Positions 1 through 49,365 of a DNA stretch of 64,000 bases are shown here, one piece after another. The position numbers and the translations under genes are program-made. The stretch covers positions 111,794 to 175,793 of the forward strand of contig CANIQT010000004.1 of the NCBI GenBank assembly GCA_947469885.1, given 5' to 3'. The DNA is from Bacteroidota bacterium. Its GTDB lineage: Bacteria; Bacteroidota; Bacteroidia; 2-12-FULL-35-15. Below the pieces are notes generated by a model, which was not told the DNA's origin, made no database searches, and saw only the letters and a list, made by a program, of their open reading frames with translations. Within the stretch, counting starts at the first letter, position 1. Every line of letters begins with the position of its first letter.

Positions 1-386
1 CCGGAGTTATCACCAACACCTAAGGTAAAACCTTTTGGTTTAGGCAAATCTCCTACAGGAGTTCCAGTTTTCCAGATGTCAAATCCGCTTTTCAATGCAG
101 TTTCCTCATCATTACCGCAATTCTGCTGAACATACAACGCCAGCGCAGTAATCCAATCGATGAGTGATTTTCTTGCAGAATTTTTGGCAGCGGTTTTAGC
201 CTTGCTGCCTCTGTCTGCAAGTTTATCCGAAAATGTATTGATTTTCGTTTGACCTGAAGCAAGTGAGGGTGACGGAGTCGGATAATCTACCGAATCTGCC
301 TCTGTATCATCATGAATTTTCTGAGCTGCCACAACAAGGTCGCTATCCTTTGTTTTGGAAAAACCATACTTAATCTTGACTTTCAT
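1..386 (-). CDS. Partial hypothetical protein (runs off the left edge), paralog of 22793..23410; helical N-domain, probably followed by an FN3-like domain
   Basis: Not in the ORF track. Manual translation MKVKIKYGFSKQKDSDLVVAAQKIH...YPTPSPSL...DRGSKAKTAAK...YVQQNCGNDE...SGFDI...PVGDLPKP aligns without gaps to 22793..23410, about 72/128 identical by hand count. Confidence 0.9.
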   Translation of the reverse strand, partial: MKVKIKYGFSKTKDSDLVVAAQKIHDDTEADSVDYPTPSPSLASGQTKINTFSDKLADRGSKAKTAAKNSARKSLIDWITALALYVQQNCGNDEETALKSGFDIWKTGTPVGDLPKPKGFTLGVGDNS

Positions 387-581
387 ATCTCAATTGTTTT
401 TGGACTCGTTATTTTGATTACATCTTTCATTTTGTTGTGTTCCGAGAATTCCGCTGGTGAATCAAATTTACTTGCGGAAACATCGCACTTGCGCAGTGTT
501 ATATGTTTATAAAATTTATTTTTTCCTATTTTAAACTATTTTTGTTCAATTTTTTAATCAATACCAGTGTTGCCAATGTTT

Positions 582-854
582 TTTGGAACGTCCCAAAAAC
601 ATTTTTCGTACAGACGAAAAACATTTTGCCTGTACAAAAATGATTTTTGCCCAGGCAAAAAACATTTTGGGACGTTACTTAAGTGTTTTTGCCTGGACGA
701 AAACCTTTTTGAAACGTTACAAAGGCATTTTTGCCTGTTCCAAACCTATTTAGTAACGTCCCAAAACGCCAATGGGACGTTCCAAAATTCCATTTCCATG
801 TTGAAATGGAACATTTCCGGGTACAAAAACTCCATCGCCAACAGGCAAAACAGT
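582..854. repeat. Degenerate 21-bp-period array of imperfect palindromes, about 13 units (array A)
   Basis: Units such as TTTGGAACGTCCCAAAAACAT, TTTTGCCTGTACAAAAATGAT and TTTTGCCCAGGCAAAAAACAT. Shadow ORF 567..947 shows F or I every 7 residues. Confidence 0.8.
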
Positions 855-1247
855 GTTTTTATTCCAATTTTAAGCATTGAAACAAAGCAAAACAGTTCAT
901 TTATTCAATCAAAGAACGAAAAACGCTTAATATTAAGCGTACTTTAAAAATTTGTGATTTGTTGCCCAACCATACTATTACAGGTTCAAGGACTTTTTAA
1001 AGTAGTAAGGTTCACTACATGCGGTTTGATTTAGGTATTTGTAATTTAATTAATGCTTCTGATAGGTTATACGTTGACTTTGAAAATAAGGTTTCACTTT
1101 TTTGCAATTATTTTTTTGCTGGTCATATAAGGTTATAAGCAGGGTTTCGGAAAGGGTTACGTTTTTTTGCAAATATTTTTTAAAATAAAATCCTTCCTGA
1201 TTTTATTATGCCTTAGTGGTAAATTCCAAAAGTATTAAATCTTACTT

Positions 1248-2792
1248 TTATTTCAACCCCTGCAATGCCTTTTTAAAACTAACTTTCTCTTCTATTATTT
1301 CAGATAGTTTATCAATAGAAACTCTTTCTTGTAACATTGTATCGCGATAACGGATAGTTACTTTATTATCAGTCAAAGAATCATGGTCAATGGTAATGCA
1401 GAACGGAGTACCAATGGCATCCTGTCTCCGGTAACGTTTACCAATCGTGTCTTTTTCATCGTACGTACAAGAGTTGTCAAACTTTAACATATCCATTATT
1501 TCACGGGCTTTTTCGGGTAAACCGTCTTTTTTTACTAAAGGAAGTATAGCAACTTTAATAGGAGCTAAAAATGCAGGAAGGTTAAGAGCCACACGGGTGG
1601 TGCCGTCTTCCAGTTTTTCTTCAATGAATGCTTTTGATAAAACAGCAAGGAACAAACGGTCAAGCCCTACTGATGTTTCCACCACATAAGGCACATAATT
1701 CTGGTTGAGTTCCGGGTCAAAATATTGTAATTTTTTTCCTGAATGTTGCTCGTGTGCTTTCAAATCGAAATCCGTCCTACTGTGAATTCCTTCTAGTTCC
1801 TTAAATCCGAAAGGGAAGTTAAATTCAATATCGCAAGCGGCATTGGCATAATGTGCTAATTTTAAATGGTCATGAAAACGGTAATTATCTTTTCCTAAAC
1901 CTAACGAAAGGTGCCAGTTCATCCGGGTTTGTTTCCATTGGTTATACCATTCCATCTCTGTTCCCGGGCGGACAAAATATTGCATTTCCATTTGTTCAAA
2001 CTCGCGCATTCTGAAAATAAATTGACGGGCTACAATCTCGTTACGAAACGCTTTCCCGGTTTGTGCAATACCAAAAGGAATTTTCATTCTTCCTGATTTC
2101 TGAACATTCAGAAAGTTTACAAATATTCCCTGTGCTGTTTCAGGGCGGAGATAAATAATGTTTGAATCCTCAGTAACAGCACCCATTGAAGTGCTGAACA
2201 TTAAATTAAACTGTCTTACTTCAGTCCAGTTTTTTGTACCTGAAATAGGGCAAACAATTTCGCAATCAATAATTATCTGTCTTACTTCTTCAAGGTTATT
2301 TTTTTCTAGAGCATCCTTAAAGCGTGAAAGTATTCCATCCGCTTTTGCCTGATTTTCTAATACTCTTGGGTTAGTGGTACAAAATGTTTCTTCATTAAAT
2401 GATTCACCAAAACGTTCTTTTGCTTTGTCCACTTCTTTCTGAATCTTTGCTTCAATCTTCGCCACATGCTCCTCTATTAGCACATCTGCCCGATAACGTT
2501 TCTTGCTGTCTTTGTTATCAATCAAGGGGTCGTTAAAGGCATCTATATGTCCAGAAGCCTTCCAAGTAGTAGGGTGCATAAAGATGGCTGCATCAATACC
2601 CACAATGTTTTCGTGCATCTGTACCATAGCTTTCCACCAGTAGTCGCGCAGGTTTTTTTTTAATTCCACACCCATTTGTCCGTAATCATACACAGCACTC
2701 AAGCCATCATAAATTTCACTGCTTTGAAAAATAAATCCGTATTCTTTTGAATGCGAAATAATGTTTTTAAAAATATCTTCTTGGTTTGCCAT
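1248..2792 (-). CDS. glyQS: Glycine--tRNA ligase (alpha2, eukaryote/archaea-type)
   Basis: Motifs YDYG, LRPETAQG, GKAFRNEI, REFEQME and IGKRYRRQDAIGTPF. Confidence 0.97.
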   Translation of the reverse strand: MANQEDIFKNIISHSKEYGFIFQSSEIYDGLSAVYDYGQMGVELKKNLRDYWWKAMVQMHENIVGIDAAIFMHPTTWKASGHIDAFNDPLIDNKDSKKRYRADVLIEEHVAKIEAKIQKEVDKAKERFGESFNEETFCTTNPRVLENQAKADGILSRFKDALEKNNLEEVRQIIIDCEIVCPISGTKNWTEVRQFNLMFSTSMGAVTEDSNIIYLRPETAQGIFVNFLNVQKSGRMKIPFGIAQTGKAFRNEIVARQFIFRMREFEQMEMQYFVRPGTEMEWYNQWKQTRMNWHLSLGLGKDNYRFHDHLKLAHYANAACDIEFNFPFGFKELEGIHSRTDFDLKAHEQHSGKKLQYFDPELNQNYVPYVVETSVGLDRLFLAVLSKAFIEEKLEDGTTRVALNLPAFLAPIKVAILPLVKKDGLPEKAREIMDMLKFDNSCTYDEKDTIGKRYRRQDAIGTPFCITIDHDSLTDNKVTIRYRDTMLQERVSIDKLSEIIEEKVSFKKALQGLK

Positions 2793-2904: not shown

Positions 2905-3513
2905 ATGAAAAAAAGCAAATTAGTATTTCTATTCGTTCTATCACTGGGTATTTCAACAATTTCATTGGCTCAACAAGGCCCTCCGGGCAAACAGGGTCCA
3001 ACGGGTCCACAAGGTGCGCAGGGTCCTGCTGGTCCTCAAGGTCCTTCTGGACCACAAGGGCAGTCGGGTTTGCCAGGTCCTCAAGGTCCGGCCGGCATTC
3101 AAGGTGCGCAAGGTCTTCAAGGTCCTCAGGGAGTTCAAGGTCCGAAAGGGCAGTTAGGAGCCACAGGCGCTATGTCCACTTTTGCGGTTTCGTTTAATGT
3201 TGAAAATAAAGAATCTTCTGCGTGGTTGATTGGTGATAAAGCGGATTATAATTCTGGTTCCAATTCAAATCCTACTCTTGTTTTGTACAGAGGTTTTACC
3301 TATCAATTTAACATCAACGTTGCCGGTTTTCCTTTCAGAATTCAGTCTGTAAATATTGCAAATGGTGCACTTTATACAATAGGAATGACGCCAAGTATTC
3401 AAAATGTAGAAAAAGGAATTCTTACATTTAAAGTTCCGATGGATGCTCCAAATCAATTGTATTATATGTGTGATACTCATCCTGGAATGACTGGAGTAAT
3501 AAATATAAAATAG
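2905..3513 (+). CDS. Secreted collagen-like (Gly-Pro-Gln) protein with C-terminal cupredoxin-like domain
   Basis: Signal peptide, about 21 GXY triplets, C-terminus NPTLVLYRG...[13 protein letters not shown]. Confidence 0.8.
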
Positions 3514-3556: not shown

Positions 3557-4978
3557 ATGAAAAAACAAACTATTCTTTTAGCAGTCATTATAACTTGTCA
3601 ATTATCAATTGTCAATTCCTTTGCCCAATCACCGCAAGGATTCAATTACCAAGCAGTAGCACGAACCTCTTCGGGAGTGGCAATTACCAATCAATCTATC
3701 GGGTTGCAAATTCGACTTTTGCAAGGCAGTGCTACAGGTACTGTGGTTTATACCGAAACACATACCTCTACTTCTAATAATATTGGTTTATTAAATGTAG
3801 TGGTTGGTACAGGAATTACTATTGATAATTTCAATTTAATTGACTGGGCAAATGGTCCTTATTTTATTGAAATAAGTATGGATGTAACAGGAGGTGCTAC
3901 GTATGTATTGATGGGCGCTCAACAATTAATGAGTGTGCCTTATGCCCTGTATGCTGCCAATGGCGGCACAACAGGAGCTACAGGAGCCACAGGAGGTATA
4001 GGTCCTCAGGGAGTGATTGGTTTGACAGGAGCGACAGGTGATGTGGGTCCCACAGGAAATACAGGTGCAACAGGTTTCAGTGGCTCCGATGGCGATAGGT
4101 ATGCAACTTCTTCTACCGATATGCTGACCATTGGATTGGGGATGCAAAGTTTAACTGTTCAAACGGGATTACAATATTCAGTTGGACAAACGGTACTAAT
4201 AGCAAATTCTGTTACTGATTTAATGAAAGGAAACTGTGTTTCTTATAATCCTTTGACAGGAGCATTGGTTGTGAATGTTACCATCGTTTCTGGTTCAGGG
4301 ACATTTGGTAGTTGGAATGTTAATTTGGATGGAGCACCAGGTCCTGTGGGAGCTGCAGGGGCAACAGGACCTGCGGGTGCAAATGGTACTAACGGCAGTA
4401 ACGGGGCAACAGGGGCCACAGGAGATAACGGAACTAATGGAACAAATGGTGTTAATGGCGCAACAGGTGCAACAGGAACTAATGGAACAAACGGAACCAA
4501 TGGTGTGAACGGAGCAACAGGAGCTACCGGTGCGAATGGAACAAATGGTGTTAATGGTGCTACAGGTGCTACAGGAGCAACAGGAACTAATGGAATAAAC
4601 GGTACAAATGGAACCAATGGCGCAACCGGTGCGACAGGTGCTGCCGGGGTTTATGCCGCCCAGTTTAATTTTGTGAACAATGGTTTTACCTCGTGGTTAG
4701 TGGGCAATGTTTCTGATTATGTATCCGGAAATAATTCGAATCCTACTCTTAATTTATATAAAGGACACACCTATTATTTTAACGTAACTGTAAGCGGACA
4801 TCCTTTAAGAATTTCTTCAACCAATGTATTCCCTGGAACACCATTTAATACAGGTGTCACCAACCAGGATGCTCAAAACAGTGTATTGGTTTTTAAAGTG
4901 CCTCAGGATGCACCCGCTACTTTATATTATAATTGTATTTATCATTCAGGCATGTTAGGGGTTATTAGTATTCACTAG
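3557..4978 (+). CDS. Secreted collagen-like protein with phage-tail-like segment and C-terminal cupredoxin-like domain
   Basis: Signal peptide, N-domain QSPQGFNYQAVAR...LMSVPYALYA, GAT/GTN triplet repeats, C-terminus GHPLRI...YYNCIYHSGMLG. Confidence 0.8.
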   Translation: MKKQTILLAVIITCQLSIVNSFAQSPQGFNYQAVARTSSGVAITNQSIGLQIRLLQGSATGTVVYTETHTSTSNNIGLLNVVVGTGITIDNFNLIDWANGPYFIEISMDVTGGATYVLMGAQQLMSVPYALYAANGGTTGATGATGGIGPQGVIGLTGATGDVGPTGNTGATGFSGSDGDRYATSSTDMLTIGLGMQSLTVQTGLQYSVGQTVLIANSVTDLMKGNCVSYNPLTGALVVNVTIVSGSGTFGSWNVNLDGAPGPVGAAGATGPAGANGTNGSNGATGATGDNGTNGTNGVNGATGATGTNGTNGTNGVNGATGATGANGTNGVNGATGATGATGTNGINGTNGTNGATGATGAAGVYAAQFNFVNNGFTSWLVGNVSDYVSGNNSNPTLNLYKGHTYYFNVTVSGHPLRISSTNVFPGTPFNTGVTNQDAQNSVLVFKVPQDAPATLYYNCIYHSGMLGVISIH

Positions 4979-9764: not shown

Positions 9765-10010
9765 GAAATTACCATAGAGGTAGCCAAAAACACATCATTT
9801 TTTAAATAAAACACCTAAAACGTTAAAAAAAAACTACTTATATGGTAATTGTTGGTTGCCCAAATGCTACCTTATCACATTCTAAGGTACTACTTTCTTT
9901 AACCAAATACTACCTTAGTGGTTACTAAGGTAATACCCGGTAGGGCAAATATCGTCTGGGCGACTACCGAGGTAGCATTTGGGCAACAAAATGCCACCTC
10001 GGTAGTCGTT
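9765..10010. repeat. Degenerate palindromic array, about 42-bp period (array E)
   Basis: CAAATRCTACCTT-type half-units at 9861, 9904, 9946 and 9988 alternate with inverted AAGGTAGCATTTG-type halves. GTTGCCCAAATGCTACCT has its exact reverse complement at about 9970-9987. Confidence 0.7.
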
Positions 10011-10141
10011 AAAAAGGCATTTTTGAGGAAAGAAATTATATAACCTAATAAATATCAATAAATTAGTAAGTGTATGGCTATTTGGTCTGAAAATGTAATC
10101 CGGAGGAGTATAAAGATAAACTAATCAATAAAACGCTAAAA

Positions 10142-10194
10142 GATGAATTTGGGTGGTTTGAGGACGAATTTGGGTAGTTTGAGGATGAATTTGG
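10142..10194. repeat. 2.5 copies of a 21-bp direct repeat
   Basis: GATGAATTTGGGTGGTTTGAG / GACGAATTTGGGTAGTTTGAG / GATGAATTTGG. Confidence 0.85.
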
Positions 10195-10326
10195 AAATAA
10201 GTATATCCTAAAATGATACCGCAAACCAAATCCTATAAGCCAAATTATCCTTTCAATGTATGAAACAGGAAACAGGAAACTAACTTTTGCTTATCTTCGC
10301 AACTAATTAAAAAATCAACTCTTTAT

Positions 10327-21017: not shown

Positions 21018-21021
21018 ATAA

Positions 21022-21098
21022 TTATGGGTTATGAGTTATGAATTATGAGTTAAGGGACATTCATAACTCATAATTCATAACTCATAATTCATAACTCA
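21022..21098. repeat. Inverted heptamer-repeat hairpin
   Basis: (TTATGAG/TTATGAA)n followed by (TCATAAC/TCATAAT)n. Confidence 0.85.
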
Positions 21099-21104
21099 AA
21101 AACT

Positions 21105-22757
21105 ATGACTCTATTAATAATAGTAATAGCATTAGCACTGATATTCGATTTCATAAATGGATTTCATGATGCTGCAAACTCAATCGCTACAATTGTTTCA
21201 ACCAAAGTGTTAACTCCTTTTCAGGCGGTGCTGTGGGCGGCATTTTTTAATTGTGTTGCGTTTTTAATTTTCAAAGACCATGCAGTTGCCAACACCATCG
21301 GCAAAACAGTTTATTCCGATTTTATTTCTTTACCCGTAATTTGTAGTGGTTTAATTGCTGCTATCTGCTGGAACCTCCTCACCTGGTGGTACGGTATTCC
21401 TTCTTCCTCTTCGCATACGCTTATTGGAGGATTCGCTGGTTCTGCTATTGCCTATGCATTTCTGAGCAAAGGAATGATGCCTATCAGCGAAATTATTGAT
21501 AGTAGTAAAATTGGAAAAACAATATTATTTATTTTTTGTGCTCCGCTTATTGGTATGATGATTTCTATATTTTTTACTCTTATTTTTATTCAGAACAGAA
21601 CATGGATAAAGGTAGGAATACTGGGAGGTTCGGCTTGTCTCATTTATTTTTTGTTTATCGGTTTTCAAGAAGATAAGTTGGCTGAAAACGTTAATAAATT
21701 TTTTAAAGTAGATAAATACACCTACGAAATAAATATAAAACACGATTCCACAAAAGCACATAAGCTAGAAAAAGCAATGCTGAGTGCCGCTACCTGTCAG
21801 CCTTTTCTTTCCAAATACGAATACCACGGTTCGGAGTATGTGGCAAACGAAATTGTGAACAATGTGGATATGAAAGAAATTACCATCAGCCGATTGGGCG
21901 ACAAACTAAATACTTATTTTAAAATAGACCAGCTGAAAAACAAAGCCAAAGTGGACCCGGCATTTAAAGAAGAATATGAGGAAACAAAAAAAATAGTTGA
22001 CAGTTTGAAACCCATCACCAAAAAGTATTTTGATTTAGGACATGACGGAATGGTGGCTACCATGACTACCTTGTATCCTATTAGCCCTGATAAATTGAAA
22101 GACTTCAGCAAAGCAATGGACATTAATATAAAAGCTGACCTTACCAAAGAATTGAGCAAGGCTGATAATAAAATAGTACGCTGGGGCTTAGTAGCCATGT
22201 TGTTTGTTTTTGCATTCATGTTTATTTACAACGAAAAAATAAAAACCCCGAGTGCCAAACGAACTTCCAACTCTTTCAAACGCGCACAATTACTGTCTTC
22301 TGCCGCTTTCAGTATTGGGCATGGAGGCAACGATGCACAAAAAGTAATGGGAATTATTGCAGCAGCATTGGTTGCCAACGGAAGTATTGTTGATATTAAA
22401 TCAATGCCCGACTGGATTCCATTGTCCTGTTATTTAGCCATCGGATTAGGCACCTTAAGCGGTGGGTGGAAAATTGTAAAAACCATGGGAACCAAGATTA
22501 CAAAGGTAACTCCGCTCGAAGGTGTATGTGCCGAAACAGCAGGTGCCACCACCTTGTTTTTAACAGAGCAAATGGGAATTCCTGTTTCCACTACTCATAC
22601 CATTACCGGAGCCATTATTGGAGTGGGTGCCACCAAAGGACTTAGCGCAGTTCGTTGGGGAGTAACCGTTAGTTTATTATGGGCATGGATACTTACCATT
22701 CCTATCAGTGCTATACTAGGTGGATTATTTTATTGGATATTTAGCTTGTTTTTGTAA
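21105..22757 (+). CDS. Inorganic phosphate transporter (PiT family) with large central insertion
   Basis: GFHDAANSIAT, PSSSSH, HGGNDAQK, PVSTTH; 550 aa. Confidence 0.93.
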   Translation: MTLLIIVIALALIFDFINGFHDAANSIATIVSTKVLTPFQAVLWAAFFNCVAFLIFKDHAVANTIGKTVYSDFISLPVICSGLIAAICWNLLTWWYGIPSSSSHTLIGGFAGSAIAYAFLSKGMMPISEIIDSSKIGKTILFIFCAPLIGMMISIFFTLIFIQNRTWIKVGILGGSACLIYFLFIGFQEDKLAENVNKFFKVDKYTYEINIKHDSTKAHKLEKAMLSAATCQPFLSKYEYHGSEYVANEIVNNVDMKEITISRLGDKLNTYFKIDQLKNKAKVDPAFKEEYEETKKIVDSLKPITKKYFDLGHDGMVATMTTLYPISPDKLKDFSKAMDINIKADLTKELSKADNKIVRWGLVAMLFVFAFMFIYNEKIKTPSAKRTSNSFKRAQLLSSAAFSIGHGGNDAQKVMGIIAAALVANGSIVDIKSMPDWIPLSCYLAIGLGTLSGGWKIVKTMGTKITKVTPLEGVCAETAGATTLFLTEQMGIPVSTTHTITGAIIGVGATKGLSAVRWGVTVSLLWAWILTIPISAILGGLFYWIFSLFL

Positions 22758-22792
22758 CTCGCAGCTTGCTCTAAATAGTTCAAATTTTATTT

Positions 22793-23410
22793 TTATTGAA
22801 CATACATGGAGATAGTATGGCTCCAAACAAGATTATTACTTGCGCCCACTCCAGCACCTCTAACAAACACTTTCTTTCCACTTTCTAAACCCTCAATTAA
22901 TACTTTGGGATTAGTGGAAACTATTGTTTTCCATGTTTCAGGGTCGCTGTTTTCGTCCTGAGTATATCTGTAAACATATGTTCCTGCTTTGTATCCATAC
23001 GATTTCATACTTGCAAAAATTTCGTGCGAATTCAAACCTGGCTCAATGGTAAATTTTTCAGGTTTTGGTAAATCGCCCACCGGCTCTGCTTTTTTACGAA
23101 TGTCGTAACCACTTCTTAATGCTTTTGCTTCATCGTTACCGCAATTAATCTGAACGTATATCCCTAATTTGTTAAGTACATCTTCCAGTGCTTTGCGAGC
23201 CGATTTTTTAGCAGCCGTTTTTACTTTGCTACCTCTGTCTTTCAACGTATCTCTATAAGCATTGGTTTTGGTTGAAACCGCACTAAGAGGAGGCGTTGGA
23301 GAAGGATATTCTATTGAATCATCATTCATACACTTCCTTATTTTTCGGGCTTTCACCAGCAGTTCGTTATCCTTGTATCGTGTAAATCCCGTTTTTATTC
23401 TCACTTTCAT
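22793..23410 (-). CDS. Hypothetical protein: helical N-domain plus fibronectin type III-like C-domain, no signal peptide
   Basis: C-terminal half P..F.IEPG...YVYRY...W...IEGLESGKKVFVRGAGVG...WS resembles FN3; paralog at 1..386. Confidence 0.8.
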   Translation of the reverse strand: MKVRIKTGFTRYKDNELLVKARKIRKCMNDDSIEYPSPTPPLSAVSTKTNAYRDTLKDRGSKVKTAAKKSARKALEDVLNKLGIYVQINCGNDEAKALRSGYDIRKKAEPVGDLPKPEKFTIEPGLNSHEIFASMKSYGYKAGTYVYRYTQDENSDPETWKTIVSTNPKVLIEGLESGKKVFVRGAGVGASNNLVWSHTISMYVQ

Positions 23411-23594
23411 GTCTCATCGTTTTTGTGGTTTAGCTGTATTACTTTCATTTTATCTTTTGTTCACGAGCTTTTCGGGAGTGAATCAACTTAACTCACCTCT
23501 TGCATCGCTTAATTTGTTTGTCATTAATCTATCTTTCATTTTAATTATTAATTATGCATGTGTTTCCAATTATTATACCTCTTTTTCCACTCTA

Positions 23595-23825
23595 TCTTCA
23601 ATTAGAAATGCTCCATCTGCAATTGATTATGCTTTGTCTGCAATAGGTTATACATTATCTGCAATAGAAAATGCTTCATCTGCAATAGCAAAAATGTTAT
23701 CTGCAATTGCGGTTACTCCATCTGCAATAAGAAAAACTCCATCTGCAATAGCAAAAATATCATAGGTAATTGCCGATGCCACATATTCAATTGCCGAAAT
23801 TTCATTTGCAAAGCAAATAAAATGA
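23595..23825. repeat. 21-bp-period array, about 11 units, core TCTGCAAT (array B)
   Basis: TCTGCAAT occurs exactly every 21 bp from 23616 to 23742, with degenerate units on both sides. Confidence 0.9.
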
Positions 23826-26414: not shown

Positions 26415-26416
26415 AG

Positions 26417-26542
26417 GGTTACTAATAAACCAATCAAAACTAATTTACTAAATGTTGCTAATAGACGAATCAAAACTAATCTACTAAATCATTTGTATTG
26501 GACTTGTTTCGTAAATTCGTTTTGATTCGTTTATTGGTAACC
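26417..26542. mobile_element. 126-bp MITE/REP-like element built from 36-bp units (family X)
   Basis: Two forward units GGTTRCYAATAAACGAATCAAAACKAATTTACKAAA plus one inverted unit; approximate reverse complement of 63112..63237. Confidence 0.7.
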
Positions 26543-26553
26543 AAACCCACCCC

Positions 26554-30772: not shown

Positions 30773-31199
30773 TTTATTTAGTAAAATATAGTTCTTTGTT
30801 TTACTGATTCCATTTTCATTTTTTGTAAATAATTCTCTTTTTTCAAAAGCAAAACAGAAAAAAATAAAAAATATTTTTTTTATTTTTTAAAAATCAGGAT
30901 AGAATAAAATAATTTATTTCTCAAATTTATTCAATTCACTTTGTATCAAAAAATGTTTTTATAAAAAACAACAGTCCTCTGTAATGTATCTGTAATCAAT
31001 ACTTACAGAAGTTCATTAAATAAAAAACATTTTTTTATAACAGCAAAAAATTAATAATATTAACCGAACAATTTTAAAATTAATAAACCATCACCACTGT
31101 TATCAACAAATTAGTGTTAATAAAATAAACTATATAAATAATTTTTGCATTAATATTTTAGCGTACTTCGTGGCATAATAATTAATAAACAAAAAAACC

Positions 31200-31307
31200 A
31201 TGGCAAAAAAAGCAGCAAAAAAAGCAGCTCCTAAAAAAGCAGCAAAGAAAGCAGCAAAAAAAGCAGCTCCTAAAAAAGCAGCTAAAAAAGCAGCTAAGAA
31301 AAAGTAA
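31200..31307 (+). CDS. 35-aa histone H1-like Lys/Ala/Pro-rich basic peptide
   Basis: MAKKAAKKAAPKKAAKKAAKKAAPKKAAKKAAKKK; A-rich leader and own terminator; below the ORF-track length cutoff. Confidence 0.85.
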   Translation: MAKKAAKKAAPKKAAKKAAKKAAPKKAAKKAAKKK

Positions 31308-39240: not shown

Positions 39241-40623
39241 TTATTTGTTTGGAATTCGGATTACAACCTTTGTCCCTTTATTGAGTTCCGAAGTAAGTGT
39301 AATTTCTCCTCCGTGAATTTTTATTATCTTTTCGGTGAGTGAAAGTCCGAGCCCGTTTCCATGAATATTTTTTACATTTTTAGCTCTGTAAAAGGGTTGG
39401 AATATTTTTTCGACATCTTCATTATCTATTCCTATTCCTTTATCCACAAATTCAACTGCTACATATTTTTCTCCAGCACTTATAAATACTTCTATAGTAT
39501 TTTGGGGTGAATATTTACATCCATTATCCATCATATTACTTATGGCTGTTTTTAGCAAATAATCGTTTCCGAAAACCATAAGCTTTTTTTCATCGTCATT
39601 CACATTCTTAAATTGAATCAAAACCGTGTATTCTTTTTTTAGTTTCAATAATTCTCCTCTTGCTTCCCAAACAAGTTCATCAATCCGCAAATTTTTAAGT
39701 GATAGTTCTGAAATGTCGGAACTTACTTTTGCGAGATCAAGAAGTCCGTTAGATAACCCATTCAGATTTTTAATATCCTCTAATACTGATTCCAGAACAC
39801 GTACGTAATCTTCCTTTTCTCTTTCCTTGAGTAGCGACACTTCTATTTGTCCTGTAATAGATGTAAGCGGAGTTCGCAATTCGTGCGATGCGTTGGATAC
39901 AAAACTTCTTTGCATTTCGAACGACCACTCCAATCGTTCCAACATTTTGTTAAAGGTAATGGCAAGCTGTGCTATTTCGTCTGTCCCGTTTCCTTCTTTT
40001 ACTCTCATGTTTAAACTGGCAGCATTTATTTTATCTACCTGTTTCACCACATCCGACATGGGTTCAAGTGCCTGTTTGGCAAAAACTCTTCCTATCAAAA
40101 TAGTAAATAGGATACTCAATAAAAAAGTAATGATTAATAAAAATTTCAAATAGCTCAATTTGCTCAACCCATATTTATCTAGTGCAGATACTACCACCAC
40201 AAACCAATTGTTTTTATTTTTATACAAAAGCCCAAGAACTTCATTTTCTCCTATTTTATAACGCAGTTTATTGTTTAACCTTATTGTGCCTAACTGCTCT
40301 TTATTTATATGAATAGAATCATTATCCATACTTTTATATATGATTCTGTTTTTATAATCAAACACAGCCACCCTTTCGTTAAACATTAGATTTGCTGTGT
40401 TTTTGTCTATTATTTTTAGCAAATTATAATCCACTGCTTTTACATTTACTAAAATTCGTGCTGTTGTTAGCGCTTTGTTTTCAAGTCGCTCGTAAAACTC
40501 ACTTTCTCTGTAAGAAGATGATAAATAATAAATGCTTAATGAAAAAACGATGAGAATAAACGCTACAATCAACGTAAATTGCAACGTAAGGCGGGTTTTT
40601 ATTTTTAATTGAAAAATGTTCAC
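39241..40623 (-). CDS. HAMP-domain sensor histidine kinase
   Basis: Two TMs, DEIAQLA, ASHELRTPL, N box, DKGIGI, GNGLGLS; GTGA overlap with the regulator. Confidence 0.95.
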   Translation of the reverse strand: MNIFQLKIKTRLTLQFTLIVAFILIVFSLSIYYLSSSYRESEFYERLENKALTTARILVNVKAVDYNLLKIIDKNTANLMFNERVAVFDYKNRIIYKSMDNDSIHINKEQLGTIRLNNKLRYKIGENEVLGLLYKNKNNWFVVVVSALDKYGLSKLSYLKFLLIITFLLSILFTILIGRVFAKQALEPMSDVVKQVDKINAASLNMRVKEGNGTDEIAQLAITFNKMLERLEWSFEMQRSFVSNASHELRTPLTSITGQIEVSLLKEREKEDYVRVLESVLEDIKNLNGLSNGLLDLAKVSSDISELSLKNLRIDELVWEARGELLKLKKEYTVLIQFKNVNDDEKKLMVFGNDYLLKTAISNMMDNGCKYSPQNTIEVFISAGEKYVAVEFVDKGIGIDNEDVEKIFQPFYRAKNVKNIHGNGLGLSLTEKIIKIHGGEITLTSELNKGTKVVIRIPNK

Positions 40624-41309
40624 TCTTTTAATATATAACCAACCCCTACTTGTGTTTTTATAAGTTTTGGTTCAAAATCTTTGTCAATTTTTTTTCTCAG
40701 AAAGTTAACATACACATCAATAATATTGGTGCCCGAATCGAAAGCATTGTTCCATACATTCTCCGCTATCTCAGCTCTTGTAACCACCTTGCCTTTATTT
40801 CGCATCAAATATTCGAGCAATCCAAATTCTTTTTGCGACAATTCTATTCTTGTCTCGCCCCTTTTTACTTCGTAACTATCAAGATGCATTTCCAAATCCA
40901 TAAATTTTAAAACTCTCAACGCTTTTTCTCCAGCTTTGGTGCGTTTCAGCAATGCCTTTATTCGTGCCATCAATTCCCCAAATTCAAATGGTTTTAATAG
41001 GTAATCGTCTGCACCGGCATCAAAACCTTTTAGTTTATCCAAACTGGTGCCCAAAGCGGTTAGCATGAGCACCGGAATTTTATCATCACTCTTTCTTATT
41101 TGTTTACATAATTCTATCCCACTAATTCCAGGTAGCATCACATCTAATATTACCAAATCGTAACTTCTCCTATCAAACAGTTGTTTCCCTACATTTCCAT
41201 CATCAGCAGTTTCTACCCAATATCCAACTTCTTCCAAACCAAGTTTGATAAAAGAGGAAACCTTTGGCTCATCTTCCACCAGCAATATTCTTATTTTTAT
41301 TTCTTCCAT
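40620..41309 (-). CDS. OmpR-family response regulator (CusR/ArlR-like)
   Basis: LLVEDE, LDVMLP, GADDYLLKPF, DVYVNFLRKKID, GVGY. Confidence 0.95.
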   Translation of the reverse strand: MEEIKIRILLVEDEPKVSSFIKLGLEEVGYWVETADDGNVGKQLFDRRSYDLVILDVMLPGISGIELCKQIRKSDDKIPVLMLTALGTSLDKLKGFDAGADDYLLKPFEFGELMARIKALLKRTKAGEKALRVLKFMDLEMHLDSYEVKRGETRIELSQKEFGLLEYLMRNKGKVVTRAEIAENVWNNAFDSGTNIIDVYVNFLRKKIDKDFEPKLIKTQVGVGYILKE

Positions 41310-41404
41310 TTTTCTGAAAATTAAATTATAGTGGCAAATGTATCCAATTAATTTTCACTAAAATTAAAATTGTATTAATTTAGATGACTTCATACAGCAG
41401 TTTA

Positions 41405-41690
41405 GGCAACCTTAAAATGTCTTGCAACCATGTTTTGAGGGCTTGCAACCTTACAAAACTGTTTTCGCACCTGCAAAAGTGTTTTATCAACCTTGCAAAA
41501 CTGTTTTTGCAACCGCAAAAGTGTTTTAACAAACCTGAAAAAGTGATTTTGCAACCTTGCAAAACTGTTTTAGCACTTGCAAAAGGCTTTTTGCAACCTT
41601 GCAAAACTGTTTTTGCACCTGAAAAAGTGTTTTTGCAACCTTGCATAGCGGTCTTGCAAGCTTGCAAGACTTTTTTCCAATATAATTACC
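41405..41690. repeat. About 21-bp-period palindromic array with two alternating unit types (array D)
   Basis: TTTTGCAACCTTGCAAAACTG alternates with TTTTTGCACCTGMAAAAGTG; about 13 units. Confidence 0.88.
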
Positions 41691-41782
41691 TTCTTTTGCA
41701 TAAAAGGTTTCCCGTTAAACCACTTTATTTACAACAGAATACCCTTTTATTTAGAATTATTCTTAATTTCGCGGTCCAAATT

Positions 41783-43030
41783 ATGACAACAGCCAAAACA
41801 ATAGTATCCAAACCTTTCGATATTAAAAAAATACGAGAGGATTTCCCGATTCTTTCGAGAAAAGTAAACGGAAAACCACTTATTTATTTCGATAACGCTG
41901 CTACTGGTCAAAAACCACAAGTAGTTATTGACGCAATAGACTATTATTATAAGTATCAAAATTCGAATGTTCACCGAGGGGTGCATACCATGAGTCAGGA
42001 AGTGACGGTGGTTTACGAAAACGCAAGGGCAACTATTCAAAAACATTTGAATGCTACACATGCCCACGAAATTATTTTTACTAAAGGAGCAACTGATGCT
42101 ATTAATCTGGTTGCACATTCATTTGGCAAAAAATTTATTTCAAAAGGTGATGAAATAATTATTTCCACAATGGAACATCATTCCAATATTTTGCCATGGC
42201 AACAATTATGTGAAGAAAAAGGAGCAATATTAATAGTGGTCCCGATTAATGATGCCGGAGAATTATTGATGGATGAATACAAAAAATTATTGAGTGATAA
42301 AACAAAAATAGTAGCTGTAACCCATATTTCGAATGTGTTAGGAACCATTAATCCAATCAAAGAAATTATTGATATTGCTCATGCTAAAAATATTCCGGTA
42401 CTGATAGATGGTGCACAGGCAGTAGCACACACCATGGCGGATGTTCAAAAATTGGATTGTGATTTTTATATTTTCAGCGGACATAAATTATTTGGTCCTA
42501 CAGGAGTGGGTGTTTTGTATGGGAAAGAAAAATGGTTAAACCAAATGCCACCTTACCAAGTAGGAGGAGGTACAATAAAAACAGTTACGTTTGAAAAAAC
42601 AGAGTATGCTGATTTGCCATTAAAATTTGAAGCCGGAACACCACATATAGAAGGAGGAATAGGATTAGCGGTCGCGATTGATTATGTAAACGAAATAGGT
42701 TTGGAAAACATTGCGGCTTATGAAAATGAACTGCTGGTGCACGCTACAGAAGCATTAACAAAAATAGAAGGAGTAAAAATTATTGGCACTTCAAAACATA
42801 AAGCAGCAGTTGTTTCTTTTCTGGTAGAGGGTATTCATAATTACGACCTCGGTGTTTTGCTCGATACACAAGGCATCGCAGTGCGTACTGGTCATCACTG
42901 CACTCAACCATTAATGCAACATTATAATCTCCAAGGTGTAATTCGTGCATCGTTTGCGTTTTATAATACAAAGGAAGAAATTGATATTTTTGTGGAAGGA
43001 TTAAAACGAGCTATAAAAATGTTAAAGTAA
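41783..43030 (+). CDS. sufS: Cysteine desulfurase
   Basis: YFDNAAT, EHHSN, DGAQ, SGHKLFGPTG, RTGHHC. Start placed at ATG 41783 after a TAATTTCG promoter element at 41764. Confidence 0.95.
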   Translation: MTTAKTIVSKPFDIKKIREDFPILSRKVNGKPLIYFDNAATGQKPQVVIDAIDYYYKYQNSNVHRGVHTMSQEVTVVYENARATIQKHLNATHAHEIIFTKGATDAINLVAHSFGKKFISKGDEIIISTMEHHSNILPWQQLCEEKGAILIVVPINDAGELLMDEYKKLLSDKTKIVAVTHISNVLGTINPIKEIIDIAHAKNIPVLIDGAQAVAHTMADVQKLDCDFYIFSGHKLFGPTGVGVLYGKEKWLNQMPPYQVGGGTIKTVTFEKTEYADLPLKFEAGTPHIEGGIGLAVAIDYVNEIGLENIAAYENELLVHATEALTKIEGVKIIGTSKHKAAVVSFLVEGIHNYDLGVLLDTQGIAVRTGHHCTQPLMQHYNLQGVIRASFAFYNTKEEIDIFVEGLKRAIKMLK

Positions 43031-46778: not shown

Positions 46779-47288
46779 ATGGAAAATGAAATAGTAAATA
46801 AAGTATCCGAAAGTGGGTTAATAACCATTGACCTCGAAGAATATTATCCTTTGGGCGAAAGAGTGGTGTTTGATATTAAAGACCATCTTTTCCAGGGATT
46901 GATTTTAAGAGAAAAAGATTTTCGGGAATATATAAAGAACGAAGATTGGAATAAATACAAAAACAAATATGTTGCACTCATTTGTTCTGCCGATGCCATT
47001 GTGCCTACCTGGGCTTATATGTTGTTGGCGACACAGCTGGAACCAATTGCTAAAAAGGTAGTGTTTGGCGATTTGGAAACGTTGGAAACAATACTTTATA
47101 ACGAAATTCTGTCTAAAATTAATCCTGCCGACTATCAAGATGCTCGAATTGTCATAAAAGGATGTGGAGATTTGCCTGTTCCCAAAGCAGCTTATGTTCA
47201 AATTACTTCTCTTTTGCGCCCCGTTGCCAAAAGCATTATGTATGGCGAGCCTTGTTCAACGGTGCCTTTGTACAAAAAAAGTAAGTAA
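46779..47288 (+). CDS. DUF2480 family protein
   Basis: EIVNKVSESGLITIDLE, CSADAIVPTWAY, IKGC, SIMYGEPCSTVP. Confidence 0.88.
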   Translation: MENEIVNKVSESGLITIDLEEYYPLGERVVFDIKDHLFQGLILREKDFREYIKNEDWNKYKNKYVALICSADAIVPTWAYMLLATQLEPIAKKVVFGDLETLETILYNEILSKINPADYQDARIVIKGCGDLPVPKAAYVQITSLLRPVAKSIMYGEPCSTVPLYKKSK

Positions 47289-47501: not shown

Positions 47502-47613
47502 CTAATATTAAAATCTTATCTGTAATTTCAAAAACAAAAAAAACAGGTCCGGGGCTTCCACTCCCCAAACCTGTTTTACCAACTTCACAACTCACCCGAA
47601 AAAAACAACACAC

Positions 47614-48567
47614 TTACAAAAACTCAACAGTAAACTCTCCTTTGTTAACACCATCAGGATTATACACGATTAAAAAATGTTGAGTGGTTACATTTCCCAA
47701 ATCGCTTGCCGATACAGTACCATGGCGACCAGCTGCAAGAGAAAAAAATGTTGCACCAATAGCACCGTTTTTGGTATCCGACAAATAAAAACGTAACTCA
47801 GTTACTCCATCGTTTTCAATTAATAACTGAGCCGTTGCTTCAACGGTGCGCTCCACAATGGTGTACATCATCAACTTTTTTACATGACCCTGAAACAGCA
47901 TTTGCATAATGTTGCGAATAGTAGTTAAATCGAAAAACTGCCCAATCAAAATTTTATTGGTGATGAAATGTTGCATCAATGCCCCTAAATCGTTGTATTT
48001 TGCTTCGCACATCGCCACACGGGCAGTTTCCAACTCATTACTTTTTACTCCTGTTGCTTTTATACTTGCTTTTTGTTTATTCAAAGCAGTGGTTATTAGT
48101 GTAAAAAAATCATCAACAGCAGTTTTCACTGCTGTTAAAGCTGCATCAGCTCCAATAGCCAAACTCAACGACCCGATAGCTGCAATCCGTTCCTCCTGTG
48201 TACCCACCTGAAATGGTCGGTGCCCGTTCGGAAACAGCGCATTGTAGCGGTCGCTTCCTTTTGCATAAACCACCTGAATGGCGGCATCCCATGCGTTTAC
48301 CGTAGTTTTTCTCAATAAAGCCAACAGGTTGGTTAAAGCAATGGTGTCGCTTAACTGCTGTCCTTTTTGAGTTTTCCATGCGGTGTACTTACTTATGTAG
48401 TTCAAATGAACTACTTCGTACACATTAAACAAAGCCAATATAAACAAATCGGCAATGCTCGCTTTCAGGGCTGCATAGTGTATCCTGGATACACGAAGCC
48501 CTAATCTGAAACTGCCTTGTGTGGCAATTTCGATGATGTCGGTTAAAAAAATCCATAATCTTCTCAT
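47614..48567 (-). CDS. Hypothetical protein: long helical N-domain plus beta-sandwich C-domain, no signal peptide
   Basis: Amphipathic helices with YAKGSDRYNALFPNG; beta-rich end LLIENDGVTELRFY...FLIVYN; hairpin at 47540-47577 downstream. Confidence 0.8.
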   Translation of the reverse strand: MRRLWIFLTDIIEIATQGSFRLGLRVSRIHYAALKASIADLFILALFNVYEVVHLNYISKYTAWKTQKGQQLSDTIALTNLLALLRKTTVNAWDAAIQVVYAKGSDRYNALFPNGHRPFQVGTQEERIAAIGSLSLAIGADAALTAVKTAVDDFFTLITTALNKQKASIKATGVKSNELETARVAMCEAKYNDLGALMQHFITNKILIGQFFDLTTIRNIMQMLFQGHVKKLMMYTIVERTVEATAQLLIENDGVTELRFYLSDTKNGAIGATFFSLAAGRHGTVSASDLGNVTTQHFLIVYNPDGVNKGEFTVEFL

Positions 48568-48797
48568 GATTTCTATTTATTAAATTGTTATTATTTATTT
48601 ATCCGCTATACTTATAATTATATACTTACAACTCCATAGTGGCGGTTGAGGCTAAAGAGCGGTTTCTGGTTTTTAAATAAGTTGGCACCTGCTTATTACA
48701 GGCAAAATAAAGTTTTTTCATGTTTTTAAGTTTTAAGTTAATTCAAAGGAACACTTTCCTTGGTAAAATGTTAAATTTTCGATTTTTAGAAATCAGG

Positions 48798-49090
48798 AAT
48801 GCACCAAATCATTCTGTTTGGTGTTGTATCGGATTCAACAATGCGTCAAACCACTCTGTTTGGAGCATTCCTGACTTTAACAATGCGTCAAATCATTCTG
48901 TTTGGTGCATTCCCAATTTCCCAAAAGGCTCATTTTTTATTTTTGTCGGTTTTCCGAATTCAGGAATGCGTCAAATCACCCTGTCTGGAGCATTCCTGAC
49001 TTTAACAATGCGTCAAATCATTCTGTTTGGACCATTGCTGAACCCGATACAGAGCCAAATCAATTGATTTGGTGCATTCTGGAAATGGAA
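48798..49090. repeat. 42-bp-period array of about 30-bp palindromes, 7 units, with degenerate units to about 49230 (array C)
   Basis: AATGCGTCAAATCATTCTGTTTGGWGCATTCC-type units at 48798, 48840, 48882, (48924), 48965, 49007 and 49049. Confidence 0.9.
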
Positions 49091-49365
49091 AAAGTGAAAA
49101 ATGAGAATTGTTGATGTTTTTACTAACAAGAGGGAACAGAAAACCAACCGACATAGTTGTATTCCCTAAACGGGAAAACAATACATCAATTGATTTTGTT
49201 CATTCCCAAATTGGAAAAAACATCAAATTATTATAAAATGTCAAAGAACTAATGCGTAATGGTAAGCGTACTCGTTTGTGGAAGATTTACTTTTTTTTGC
49301 AGTAGTGTTTCAAATGGCAGATGGTTTTGAGTTTAGTAAATTTGTTTTTTGTTGGTAGTTGTTTG

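Follow-up and report, generated by a model that had tools for sequence, protein, structure and literature searches.

The window, the whole 64-kb stretch of DNA analysed here, belongs to the 4.07-Mb, 91% complete assembly of an uncultured lake Bacteroidota. It contains three minus-strand ORFs (3..386, 22793..23410 and 47614..48567), in agreement with a preliminary description that had placed three stand-alone genes on this strand. These genes and the repeats around them are arranged as follows.

3..386, minus strand: P0003, the 5′ part of a P0002-type gene that runs off the left window edge; helical bundle plus FN3, family A
387..574, minus strand: gap from array 1 to the P0003 ATG, with blocks in common with the P0002 gap and a relative (G007)
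575..860, no strand assigned: array 1; autocorrelation at 617-790, Tandem Repeats Finder (TRF) at 611-669, period 21
9852..10008, no strand assigned: inverted-repeat cluster (two inverted repeats, 95% complementary) that includes one 43-bp direct repeat
10142..10195, no strand assigned: short 21-bp tandem repeat of 2.4 copies found by TRF, separate from the 9852..10008 cluster
22793..23410, minus strand: P0002, 205 aa; basic N-terminal three-helix bundle and C-terminal FN3 domain
23411..23560, minus strand: gap from array 2 to the P0002 start, scanned for motifs and hairpins
23561..23825, no strand assigned: array 2, period 21/42/63 by TRF and autocorrelation
41405..41691, no strand assigned: array without a module gene, period 42 by TRF and autocorrelation
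47540..47577, minus strand: terminator-like hairpin (15 pairs and a T run) directly past the P0001 stop
47614..48567, minus strand: P0001, 317 aa, family D
48770..49097, no strand assigned: array 3, period 42 by TRF and autocorrelation

The complete P0003 gene encodes 205 aa and lies at G000:C4:111568-112179, G000 being the window's genome. Its product is 59% identical to P0002 over the full length, a figure that replaces the earlier estimate of about 56%. Both genes that are complete in the window lie tail-to-tail against unrelated genes, as first described: P0002 against 21105..22757, called by eye as a 550-aa membrane transporter gene (putative pitA), and P0001 against 46779..47288. By reading of their N-termini, the module proteins are putatively signal-less.

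TRF and autocorrelation located periodic DNA, with periods of 21, 42 and 63 bp, at four of the five places where arrays had been proposed (near 582-854, 23595-23825, 48798-49090 and 41405-41690). Array 1 repeats a 21-bp unit about 13 times, with a 42-bp super-period, each unit combining an A-tract/T-tract core (A4-6 N2-3 T4-6) with an 8-bp GC-rich word that is found in both orientations. Array 2 has about 11 units of 21 bp, in which a conserved core, ATCTGCAAT on the plus strand, is joined to a variable 12 bp, while array 3 has about seven units of 42 bp, made up of a palindrome with an 11-bp stem (AATGCGTCAAA...TTTGGTGCATT) and a second, variable half. The array that has no module gene comprises some 13 units, each 21 bp long (super-period 42 bp, TTGCAA...AAAAC.GTTTT), and occupies the divergent gap between 40620-41309 on the minus strand, a 229-aa gene judged by eye to be a putative response regulator, and the 415-aa gene at 41783-43030 on the plus strand. 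The fifth proposed array, at 9765-10010, is weak and falls below the array threshold, with two 34-nt copies 43 bp apart at 76% identity; the 9852..10008 cluster is at best a degenerate relative of the arrays. Within the close family of P0002, array sequences differ and follow one design: an A-tract, two to three bases and a T-tract, with GC-rich arms on either side.

Assembly artefacts do not account for the arrays: contigs from lake samples cross two of them unchanged. One contig of run X3, possibly the source sample, covers 22331-26540 and with it array 2, and one of run X6, another lake sample, covers 41192-41862 and with it the 41405..41691 array.

The gap at 387..574 shares with its counterparts a small GC hairpin followed by CGATG, GATTCAC and AAAATGAAAG, and a motif scan found one exact TAnnTTTG -7 box in it, 84 bp before the ATG; in ordinary genes of this genome the box lies 20-50 bp upstream. 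The 23411..23560 gap contains neither an exact TAnnTTTG nor a terminator-like hairpin.

The pairing of gene and upstream array, proposed from the window, is statistically strong and is kept across genomes and families of the class. In the window's genome, an array faces the 5′ end of 40 of the 53 members of eight protein families, compared with 210 of about 3254 called genes (about 6%), and all seven P0002 paralogs have one. Elsewhere, P0002-like genes (205 aa) carry a 20-21-bp-based array upstream at 24 of 26 assessable loci (16 at lag 21/42/63, two at lag 20/40/60 and six located by coordinates), and P0001-like genes (317 aa) carry a 41/42-bp array at 28 of 30 loci, which come from 11 genomes and five families of the class. 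Downstream controls yielded arrays at 0 of 18 and 0 of 29 loci, respectively. The preliminary view that the period is conserved and the sequence is not was supported. The period tracks the protein family, with 21 bp beside the 205-aa FN3 family and 42 bp beside the 317-aa family, and the array ends 22-278 bp before the start codon (5th-95th percentile, 75 measured modules).

Beyond these modules, the genome holds 221 tandem arrays of period 21/42 bp, 205 of them outside genes, with a median length there of 279 bp. Genome-wide self-similarity, counted as regions that match themselves at 62% or more over 105 bp, has its only peaks at lags 21, 42, 63 and 84, with 149, 182, 144 and 157 regions, against none at lags 19, 20 and 23, ten at lag 22 and three each at 41 and 43; a few arrays have 20- or 22-bp units. 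Nearly every array has its own unit sequence, unit length being the common property. Unit-to-unit mismatches are equal at all codon positions (0.319/0.316/0.317), as opposed to 0.32/0.31/0.43 in comparison arrays inside real genes, and coding for heptad-repeat proteins was rejected on this ground. The imperfect palindromes reported for the units hold for many arrays, 66% of the 205 folding at z < -4 against shuffles, but some are nearly unpaired. The arrays are also not confined to the module genes: about 160 in the genome have no module gene, most of the roughly 205 outside genes lie beside ordinary genes, many of these housekeeping genes, and 15 of 20 randomly drawn other 5′-facing neighbours were ordinary genes. 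Taken together, the arrays form a lineage-enriched, fast-evolving non-coding class whose only common features are unit length and a total length that is typically about 280 bp. Linked to this class are unannotated, stand-alone genes, nearly all of them preceded by a private array.

The genes are patchily distributed: among 201 genomes of the class, 11 carry P0001-type genes (1-12 matches each), and P0002-type genes occur in 12 of 41; where genomes were searched with both queries, the two families mostly co-occur. Arrays are missing from most orthologous congener sites checked, being present at 0 of 5 for glyS, 0 of 5 for the 41783 gene, 1 of 18 for pitA and 1 of 2 assessable for nrdA. Where unrelated loci share an identical unit, homology is limited to the array and 0-200 bp beside it. 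Selfish-like dynamics are evident from presence and absence in congeners and from the spread of units among unrelated loci.

Where two protein families had been implied, at least eight unannotated families are linked to arrays in this genome. Seven combine an elongated helical bundle with a C-terminal beta-sandwich (FN3, CarboxypepD_reg-like or jelly-roll), and one, family E, is a small Cro/C1-type HTH protein with a pI of 8.7. Family A has a basic median pI of 9.5, with a strongly Lys/Arg-rich N-terminal half in P0002, while families F and H are acidic, with a pI of about 5. The predicted structure of P0002 (pLDDT 90.9) retrieved FN3 only in a fold search (Z 15.0, rmsd 1.6, 91 aligned), and the protein has no match to Pfam, NCBIfam, PHROG or PADLOC families. 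P0001 (pLDDT 89.8) is predicted to form a long antiparallel helical bundle with two helices of about 60 residues and a C-terminal eight-stranded beta-sandwich, and its fold search returned helical bundles of a generic kind and sandwiches resembling PirA or Ena.

Searches of family databases, Rfam and the literature turned up no named system with this layout, as the preliminary description had anticipated, and we found no described counterpart of the conserved gene-array pairing. By analogy, the array design is comparable to that of operator arrays, iterons and plasmid centromeres, among them sopC of the F plasmid. In sopC, a 43-bp direct repeat occurs 12 times, and SopB binds a 16-bp inverted repeat within each copy (PMC3177203). 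The arrays and sopC both have tandem units of about four helical turns containing a palindrome, span several hundred bp and carry a system-private sequence; sopC adjoins the gene of its binding protein, as the arrays adjoin module genes whose products are candidate binders. The arrays differ in lacking an adjoining ParB/ParR/RHH or ParA/ParM gene, in their roughly 200 chromosomal loci as against one per replicon, in their many 21-bp units and in the helical-bundle and beta-sandwich proteins beside them.

Other repeat systems share parts of this organization. Iterons of theta-replicating plasmids are 17-22-bp direct repeats, about two helical turns apart, that are bound by an adjacent Rep protein. 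Like the arrays, they combine a period of about 21-22 bp, one helix face and an upstream position with a private sequence that co-varies with the neighbouring gene; unlike them, the arrays have no Rep-type winged-helix initiator alongside, number in the hundreds per genome, run to 10-18 units and often lack a partner gene. Type III toxin-antitoxin loci (ToxIN, CptIN, TenpIN) have a repeat array directly upstream of a stand-alone gene, and the repeat RNA, in units of about 34-47 nt, binds the adjacent protein. The modules share with them the stand-alone gene of about 170-320 aa directly behind an array, the locus-own repeat and the patchy distribution, whereas they differ in unit length (21/42 bp), in having no array-gene terminator in the two modules scanned, in proteins that match neither a ToxN/AbiQ-like family or fold nor any PADLOC entry, and in showing no folding strand bias. 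REP/BIME elements, which are associated with RAYT transposases, are likewise short, often palindromic intergenic units in all orientation classes, including convergent ones, with hundreds per genome and variation between relatives. REPs of one genome have one or few common sequences, in contrast to the arrays, with their private units, strict head-to-tail 21-bp period and absence of a common flank motif; only one clear Y1 transposase gene is present in the genome, with no evident tie to the arrays.

Our preferred reading, to which we assign a probability of about 35%, is that the arrays, as double-stranded DNA phased with the helix, serve as protein-assembly platforms controlling the adjacent gene, and that they turn over rapidly. 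Two turns of B-DNA correspond to 21 bp and four to 42 bp; identical sites at this spacing would therefore all lie on one helix face, and cooperative protein loading, with one protomer or dimer per unit, would therefore be possible. The resulting nucleoprotein platform may set transcription of the neighbouring gene. Since the period goes with the protein family, the binder could be the adjacent gene's own product, at least for families A and E, which are basic; such a product would autoregulate or self-assemble on its own array. Because families F and H are acidic, binding of each product to its own array cannot be general. Arrays would change through unit duplication and homogenisation and could spread or arise independently of module genes, which would explain the roughly 160 that have none. 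Against this reading, 38 arrays separate convergent 3′ ends, a setting that offers no promoter to control, fold searches found no DNA-binding fold in families A and D, and TAnnTTTG occurs in only 6 of 40 module gaps and in 11 of the 75 distal flanks, without favouring the sense strand.

The selfish-like dynamics could alternatively mean that the arrays are a satellite or mobile cassette, self-propagating tandem-repeat DNA that inserts or expands between genes, may carry a passenger gene and has no host function, a possibility we regard as real but rather doubtful. The orphan genes would then be part of the element or dependent on it, and the 21-bp rule would stem from the copying machinery, or from tolerance, as whole-turn indels leave flanking sites in phase. 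Such an origin is consistent with the patchy, multi-copy genes, the empty congener sites and the identical units at unrelated loci, with an array density of about 5.4 per 100 kb compared with 0-2 in four congeners, and with units often 94-98% alike within one array, as expected after recent expansion or homogenisation. However, the arrays have no shared terminal sequence or flank motif, no transposase or integrase lies inside the modules, and no reverse transcriptase was found in the 91%-complete genome with its single clear Y1 gene. Moreover, the lake samples showed no variation in copy number, and array pairs less than 5 kb apart are scarcer than in simulations (8.6% against 24.6%, below the 1st percentile). 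The pairing, the gap and the family-specific period are kept across families of the class, which points to selection on the gene-array pair.

An RNA-level module appears unlikely. Here the array would be transcribed into small hairpin RNAs, with or without processing, that bind, titrate or scaffold the adjacent protein or that stabilise the mRNA. The ToxIN-type layout of private direct repeats upstream of a stand-alone gene speaks for it, as do the two thirds of arrays that fold far better than shuffles and several 42-bp units with two hairpins whose stems are kept while loops vary. Arrays of 33 of 40 modules are A-rich in gene orientation, compared with about 60% of control spacers, a polarity that would also fit transcription through the array. 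The plus strand of array 3 keeps G-U pairs where the minus strand would have A-C mismatches, but this better-folding strand is opposite to the gene, and among 40 modules folding shows no strand preference relative to the gene (17 vs 23). A third of arrays pair little or not at all, the two window modules scanned have no terminator between array and gene, a promoter box distal to the arrays was not found, Rfam gave no matches on arrays, and fold searches revealed no RNase or known RNA-binding fold in the proteins. The strict 21-bp rule has no RNA rationale and matches the DNA helix; together with the absent strand asymmetry, it makes us lean towards a DNA-level role, as in the platform reading.

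Least probable, and in our view improbable, is a role as chromosome-architecture elements, in which curved DNA or nucleoid proteins mark domain boundaries, plectoneme tips or silencer nucleation sites and the orphan genes are mere preferred neighbours: it leaves the family-specific period and near-obligate orphan-gene pairing unexplained, most arrays are absent from congeners that share the gene order, an odd pattern for an essential architectural role, overall spacing is near random (CV 0.90), and predicted curvature is no higher than in column-permuted arrays (median 0.834, p = 0.14, with assumed wedge angles), so that nothing beyond periodicity is selected. Sequence repeated in helix phase is coherently curved, and the predicted end-to-end/contour ratio is indeed lower in arrays (median 0.874) than in other intergenic (0.931) or coding DNA (0.948). 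The median spacing of 13.9 kb and the deficit of close pairs also fit such landmarks, as does the presence of arrays in 165 of 377 intergenic regions of at least 350 bp, in every orientation class.

The window holds three stand-alone orphan genes, each turning its 5′ end to a private tandem array of 21- or 42-bp units. This gene-array module is real and wider than first noted. The relevant features of the window are as follows, pitA having been named by eye.

3..386, minus strand: P0003, a paralog of P0002, truncated by the window edge (205 aa when complete)
~582-854: array 1, belonging to P0003
21105..22757: pitA, a 550-aa membrane transporter gene, tail-to-tail with P0002
22793..23410, minus strand: P0002, 205 aa
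23561-23825: array 2, belonging to P0002
41405-41691: array without a module gene
41783-43030, plus strand: a 415-aa gene
47614..48567, minus strand: P0001, 317 aa
48770-49097: array 3, belonging to P0001

The three genes named in the preliminary description all exist, and its two shorter proteins are related, at 59% identity where about 56% had been given. TRF and autocorrelation give a period of 21 and/or 42 bp for all four arrays. At 9765-10010, where a further array had been proposed, there is only an inverted-repeat cluster with a single 43-bp direct repeat; a 21-bp repeat of 2.4 copies lies nearby.

The genome (G000) is a metagenome bin of 4.07 Mb in 50 contigs, 91% complete and about 36% G+C, whose nearest public relatives are uncultured ‘Bacteroidetes bacterium’ MAGs. 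Ordinary Bacteroidota housekeeping genes are present in the window, and its DNA is found again in lake-water metagenomes. Both the 23.6-kb and the 41.5-kb array are spanned by contigs from these samples with no gap or length change; the run covering the former may be the source sample of the window DNA. This unbroken coverage in other lake samples shows the arrays to be real. Among the contigs of four lake runs neither copy-number variants nor empty sites were found at these two arrays, which looked stable in the samples examined.

The periodicity pervades the genome. Counting TRF rows of 80 bp or longer gives 153, 118, 54 and 26 at periods 21, 42, 63 and 84, against 3 and 11 at periods 20 and 22. 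A lag scan unbiased across lags, in which a region requires at least 62% self-match in 105 bp, yields 149, 182, 144 and 157 regions at lags 21, 42, 63 and 84 and none at lags 19, 20 and 23. Merging lags 21 and 42, with array-calling thresholds of our own choice, gives 221 arrays totaling 60.7 kb, with a median length of 279 bp (interquartile range 226-321 bp) and a unit consensus private to nearly every array. Sixteen lie inside genes, 10 at contig edges and 195 between genes (56 divergent, 101 co-directional, 38 convergent), and 165 of the 377 intergenic regions of at least 350 bp (44%) contain one. Short-read assemblies seem to be broken by arrays; besides the ten at contig edges, for many P0001 homologues the only contigs known measure 1-2 kb.

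Clustering the array-flanking genes of G000 produced eight families that mostly turn their 5′ end to an array.

Table. Gene families facing arrays in G000 (members; members with an array at the 5′ face)
Family A, P0002-like: 15; 12
Family B, about 221 aa: 8; 5
Family C, about 232 aa: 8; 6
Family D, P0001-like: 7; 6
Family E, about 120 aa, Cro/C1-type HTH: 5; 4
Family F, about 312 aa: 4; 2
Family G, about 310 aa: 3; 2
Family H, about 320 aa: 3; 3

Together, 40 of the 53 members have an array at the 5′ face, compared with 210 5′-facing genes among approximately 3254 in the genome. These call-dependent counts are approximate, as genes were called by a simple in-house ORF and codon-usage caller (3314 genes, 88% coverage) and 60 array-made ORFs were later taken out. 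The three array-less genes of family A begin 105-163 bp from a contig end (for example C17:163, C23:105 and C37:161), and the seventh family D member reaches a lag-42 self-match of 0.61. Of the P0002 paralogs recovered by a whole-genome search, 7/7 carry an upstream array.

The association extends to related genomes. The P0002-type survey took in 30 loci; their 12 genomes cover three other families of the class as well. The gene was placed by tblastn in 20 loci, of which 19 were kept after a 56-aa fragment was left out. The top lag is 21, 42 or 63 in 16 of these (self-match at least 0.6) and 20, 40 or 60 in two; the one locus without an array carries a gene with an in-frame stop. The other ten of the 30 loci were placed by coordinates: three have no upstream DNA, six of the remaining seven have the array, and in the last (L020) it lies on the opposite side of the gene. 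P0001-type genes turned up in 11 of the 201 class genomes (1-12 matches per genome); the arrays counted for them have a 41/42-bp period and lie no more than 800 bp upstream. Arrays are thus enriched beside homologs, the pattern looked for since the preliminary description, lying upstream in 24/26 P0002-type and 28/30 P0001-type loci and downstream in 0/18 and 0/29, though the genomes compared are related and hence not independent samples. A narrower alignment search of the P0002 family returned only six loci, two in new genomes. Outside the 30 loci surveyed, two MAG loci of this type have self-matches of 0.75 and 0.55, the latter under threshold though periodic by eye. Many full-length relatives of about 200 aa were recovered by profile search, and Atlas clusters contain 50-360 members, mostly from Bacteroidota.

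Period is conserved where sequence is not. In the 75 modules measured, the array ends a median of 97 bp (5th-95th percentile 22-278) ahead of the start codon and is itself a median of 280 bp long. Period tracks family: 21 bp in family A, 42 bp in family D, where a 21-bp sub-period is lacking. Close relatives of P0002 have arrays that differ in sequence, yet each 21-bp unit keeps an A-tract and a T-tract two or three bases apart, between GC-rich words that occur in both orientations within one array. The 42-bp units of families D and H mostly comprise two distinct short palindromes whose stems are kept and whose loops vary. In gene orientation, 33 of 40 module arrays are A-rich, against about 60% of control spacers. 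No universal flank or terminal motif was found. By eye, a short upstream ORF can be made out in the leader of each 205-aa gene (387-470 for P0003, 23411-23470 for P0002; minus strand); it begins ATGAAAG like the main gene, and its terminal TGA overlaps the main ATG (ATGA).

Apart from the small HTH proteins of family E, the module proteins combine helical bundles with β-sandwiches, and P0001, P0002 and P0003 have no credible Pfam or NCBIfam family. The P0002 model (pLDDT 90.9) comprises a three-helix bundle and an FN3 domain. This C-terminal half is a seven-stranded sandwich with the W...GL.SG..Y.FRV...WS signature in the alignment; it superposes on 3f7q_A (Z 15.0, rmsd 1.6, 91 residues), and Foldseek matches P0002 to neogenin FN3 (E 4e-6). 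Pfam returned no match to this half better than E = 1. The P0001 model (pLDDT 89.8) pairs a long helical bundle, matched only by generic helical proteins under trust level, with an eight-stranded sandwich predicted to resemble PirA (Z 9.9 and 9.4) and Ena pilins (Z 8.6). In the Atlas this model lies near a CarboxypepD_reg-like cluster (TM 0.63), and families F and G carry a C-terminal CarboxypepD_reg-like sandwich. No homology between families A and D is detectable by hhalign (probability 2.7%). Family A is basic (median pI 9.5), as is E (8.7); F and H are acidic (about 5). PHROGs and PADLOC gave nothing for 11 of 12 proteins scanned, the exception being one family E member, which matched HTH regulator families. 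A profile search of PDB sequences gave nothing significant (best EspA, E 0.037, for the P0001 family), and a homodimer prediction for P0002 scored 0.00 and gave no verdict.

A two-turn period shared by about 200 unrelated sequences, the absence of coding, the lack of a folding strand preference and the family-specific period together point to arrays that act as double-stranded DNA. By analogy with iterons and sopC-type centromeres, they would present repeated sites on one helical face. Our proposal is that such a phased platform for protein assembly may control the adjacent gene, whose own product would be the likely binder in the basic families. In its fullest form, this reading is of an undescribed Bacteroidota module in which elongated helical-bundle/β-sandwich families co-evolve with private arrays whose defining trait is helical phase, with 21 or 42 bp for each protomer, and not sequence; the protein would assemble as a polymer along its array to form a defined nucleoprotein body some 280 bp long, and the array could multiply as a period-defined satellite. 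We give it roughly one chance in four. Acidic families, arrays in convergent gaps and the many arrays that have no module gene speak for some other explanation of at least part of what is seen.

If true, this reading would introduce a new principle by which proteins address DNA, and perhaps a new principle of mobile DNA too. A functional pairing would define several large, wholly unannotated protein families and a cis element read by period rather than sequence, invisible to current annotation pipelines and motif finders. It would also account for 44% of the long intergenic regions of G000 and may explain contig breaks at arrays in such organisms. The arrays also lend themselves naturally to testing how protein assembly on DNA depends on helical phase.

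A selfish, period-defined satellite would also suit the arrays, given where they are present or absent and how they spread. Arrays fill 38 gaps between convergent genes, and of 20 random other 5′-facing genes, 15 have ordinary Pfam domains; neighbors include ApaG, proline dehydrogenase, an ECF sigma factor, glutathione peroxidase and type IX secretion system (T9SS) cargo. A unit can recur in arrays at unrelated loci, which are then homologous only in the array or a short flank. Orthologous sites in congeners are mostly array-free: an array is present in 0/5 downstream of glyS (one congener at 96% protein identity) and in 0/5 upstream of the 415-aa gene at 41783, and in one of two assessable relatives downstream of nrdA. 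Downstream of pitA, 1 of 18 relatives has an array, a different 41-bp one in G006; gene order there differs in 18/18, and no clean empty site of the P0002 cassette was found. Density is 0-2 arrays per 100-kb sample in four congeners versus about 5.4 per 100 kb in G000. Array pairs less than 5 kb apart are rare (8.6% observed, 24.6% in simulation), a point against the selfish reading. Even if selfish, a bacterial satellite that keeps to one two-turn unit length across some 200 independent sequences would be unusual. In the G006 locus (L032, contig C25), the closest pitA ortholog (90% identity) is followed 400-700 bp downstream by another 41-42-bp array (AGACTAGTATAA...) and no module gene, at the chromosomal site that array 2 and P0002 occupy in G000.

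An RNA role for the arrays, raised in the preliminary description as processed small hairpins, is less likely. Most arrays do fold: 66% reach z < -4 against shuffles, which upholds for many arrays the imperfect palindromes described for the units, though some hardly pair. The better-folding strand, however, bears no relation to gene direction (17 versus 23). Rfam gave no match on arrays at gathering thresholds or at E ≤ 0.5; the sole matches are miRNA-like chance ones to a heptamer hairpin at 21013-21103 and a hairpin at 9945-10024.

Resemblances to known repeat systems are partial. Type III toxin-antitoxin (TA) loci have upstream repeats, a ToxN/AbiQ-type endoribonuclease, an intervening terminator and processed unit-length RNAs that bind the protein. 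The modules share tandem direct repeats directly 5′ of a protein gene, but their helical-bundle and FN3/sandwich proteins have no ToxN/AbiQ match (Pfam, NCBIfam, PADLOC), no RNase fold appeared among the matches listed in fold searches, and a simple consensus scan of two window modules found no terminator-like hairpin between array and start codon. Iteron replicons carry direct repeats of ~17-22 bp two turns apart, in one or a few arrays at an origin, with a winged-helix Rep initiator. The ~21-bp repeats here are phased likewise by two helical turns, but no Rep family is found in the module proteins (Pfam, NCBIfam), and 221 arrays in 4.07 Mb contrast with one or a few per replicon.

REP/BIME-RAYT systems use one or a few conserved palindromic units in each genome, with repeats flanking the RAYT (Y1 transposase) gene. 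In contrast, nearly each array has its own consensus, with no enriched flank k-mer. One Y1_Tnp match lies above cut-off in G000 (C16:70560-70898, its only clear Y1_Tnp gene), and a weak Y1-transposase-like ORF (C27:38576-38767) adjoins two arrays at C27:39140-40083; a REP/RAYT-like link of arrays to this ORF is possible. Unlike CRISPR, units are contiguous with no unique spacers, and the module proteins include no cas family. Partition centromeres consist of tandem units of about 43 bp or 11-20 bp that each hold the binding motif, beside genes for a centromere-binding protein and a partition NTPase. The 42-bp units with internal palindromes recall partition centromeres (sopC/parC); sopC comprises 12 x 43 bp with a 16-bp inverted repeat in each, according to the accessible text of PMC3177203. 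However, the module proteins include no ParB, ParR, RHH or partition NTPase family, and the genes stand alone. The protein-partner or copy-number hallmarks of type III TA, iteron replicons, partition centromeres and CRISPR are therefore absent. No named system with this layout turned up: literature searches on Bacteroidota 21/42-bp arrays and helically phased bacterial tandem repeats yielded nothing relevant.

Tandem sigma-A promoters are rejected. The Bacteroidota -7 box is in use, TAnnTTTG peaking 20-50 bp before G000 start codons, but its density is 0.41 per kb in arrays versus 1.68 per kb in other intergenic DNA. It occurs in only 6/40 module gaps, with no sense-strand excess in the 160 bp distal to arrays (11/75 modules). 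Coding for heptad-repeat proteins, an alternative named in the preliminary description, fails on the lack of a third-position mismatch excess (0.319/0.316/0.317 by codon position in the longest open frame; 0.32/0.31/0.43 for in-gene arrays) and the existence of 20- and 22-bp arrays. Selection for curvature beyond periodicity left no sign with the wedge parameters used.

Other repeats were observed alongside the arrays. Heptamer tandem runs lie at 21022-21098, 56408-56503 and 60482-60537; in the first, a TTATGAG run followed by an inverted TCATAAC run forms a long hairpin between two genes. Thirty-six G000 regions self-match at lag 7, and since 7 x 3 = 21, the heptamer runs may be related to the arrays. 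The accessible text of PMC4679880 deals with TAACTGA heptamers, not 21/42-bp arrays. A 36-bp repeat of two copies lies at 26418-26543, and the stretch beside it varies in copy number among lake samples (joints ‘skips 54’ and ‘goes back 37’), a variation the 21/42-bp arrays did not show. At 31190-31304, a Lys/Ala-rich 12/39-bp repeat (AKKAA...) resembles a histone H1-type tail, and metagenome contigs of differing lengths pile up there. Adjacent genes at 2905-3513 and 3557-4978 encode signal-peptide-bearing collagen-like (G-x-y repeat) proteins with a common C-terminal domain, ending ...MTGVINI and ...MLGVISI. A conserved family of ~325 aa (C2:88791-89765, C3:167565-168539 and C30:10315-11301 in G000; L063:341-1273 in G006) carries 14-aa repeats (GIPEKR.G.N...) in its N-terminal third, where the 42-bp units are truly coding, and its C-terminus reads as winged-helix-like.
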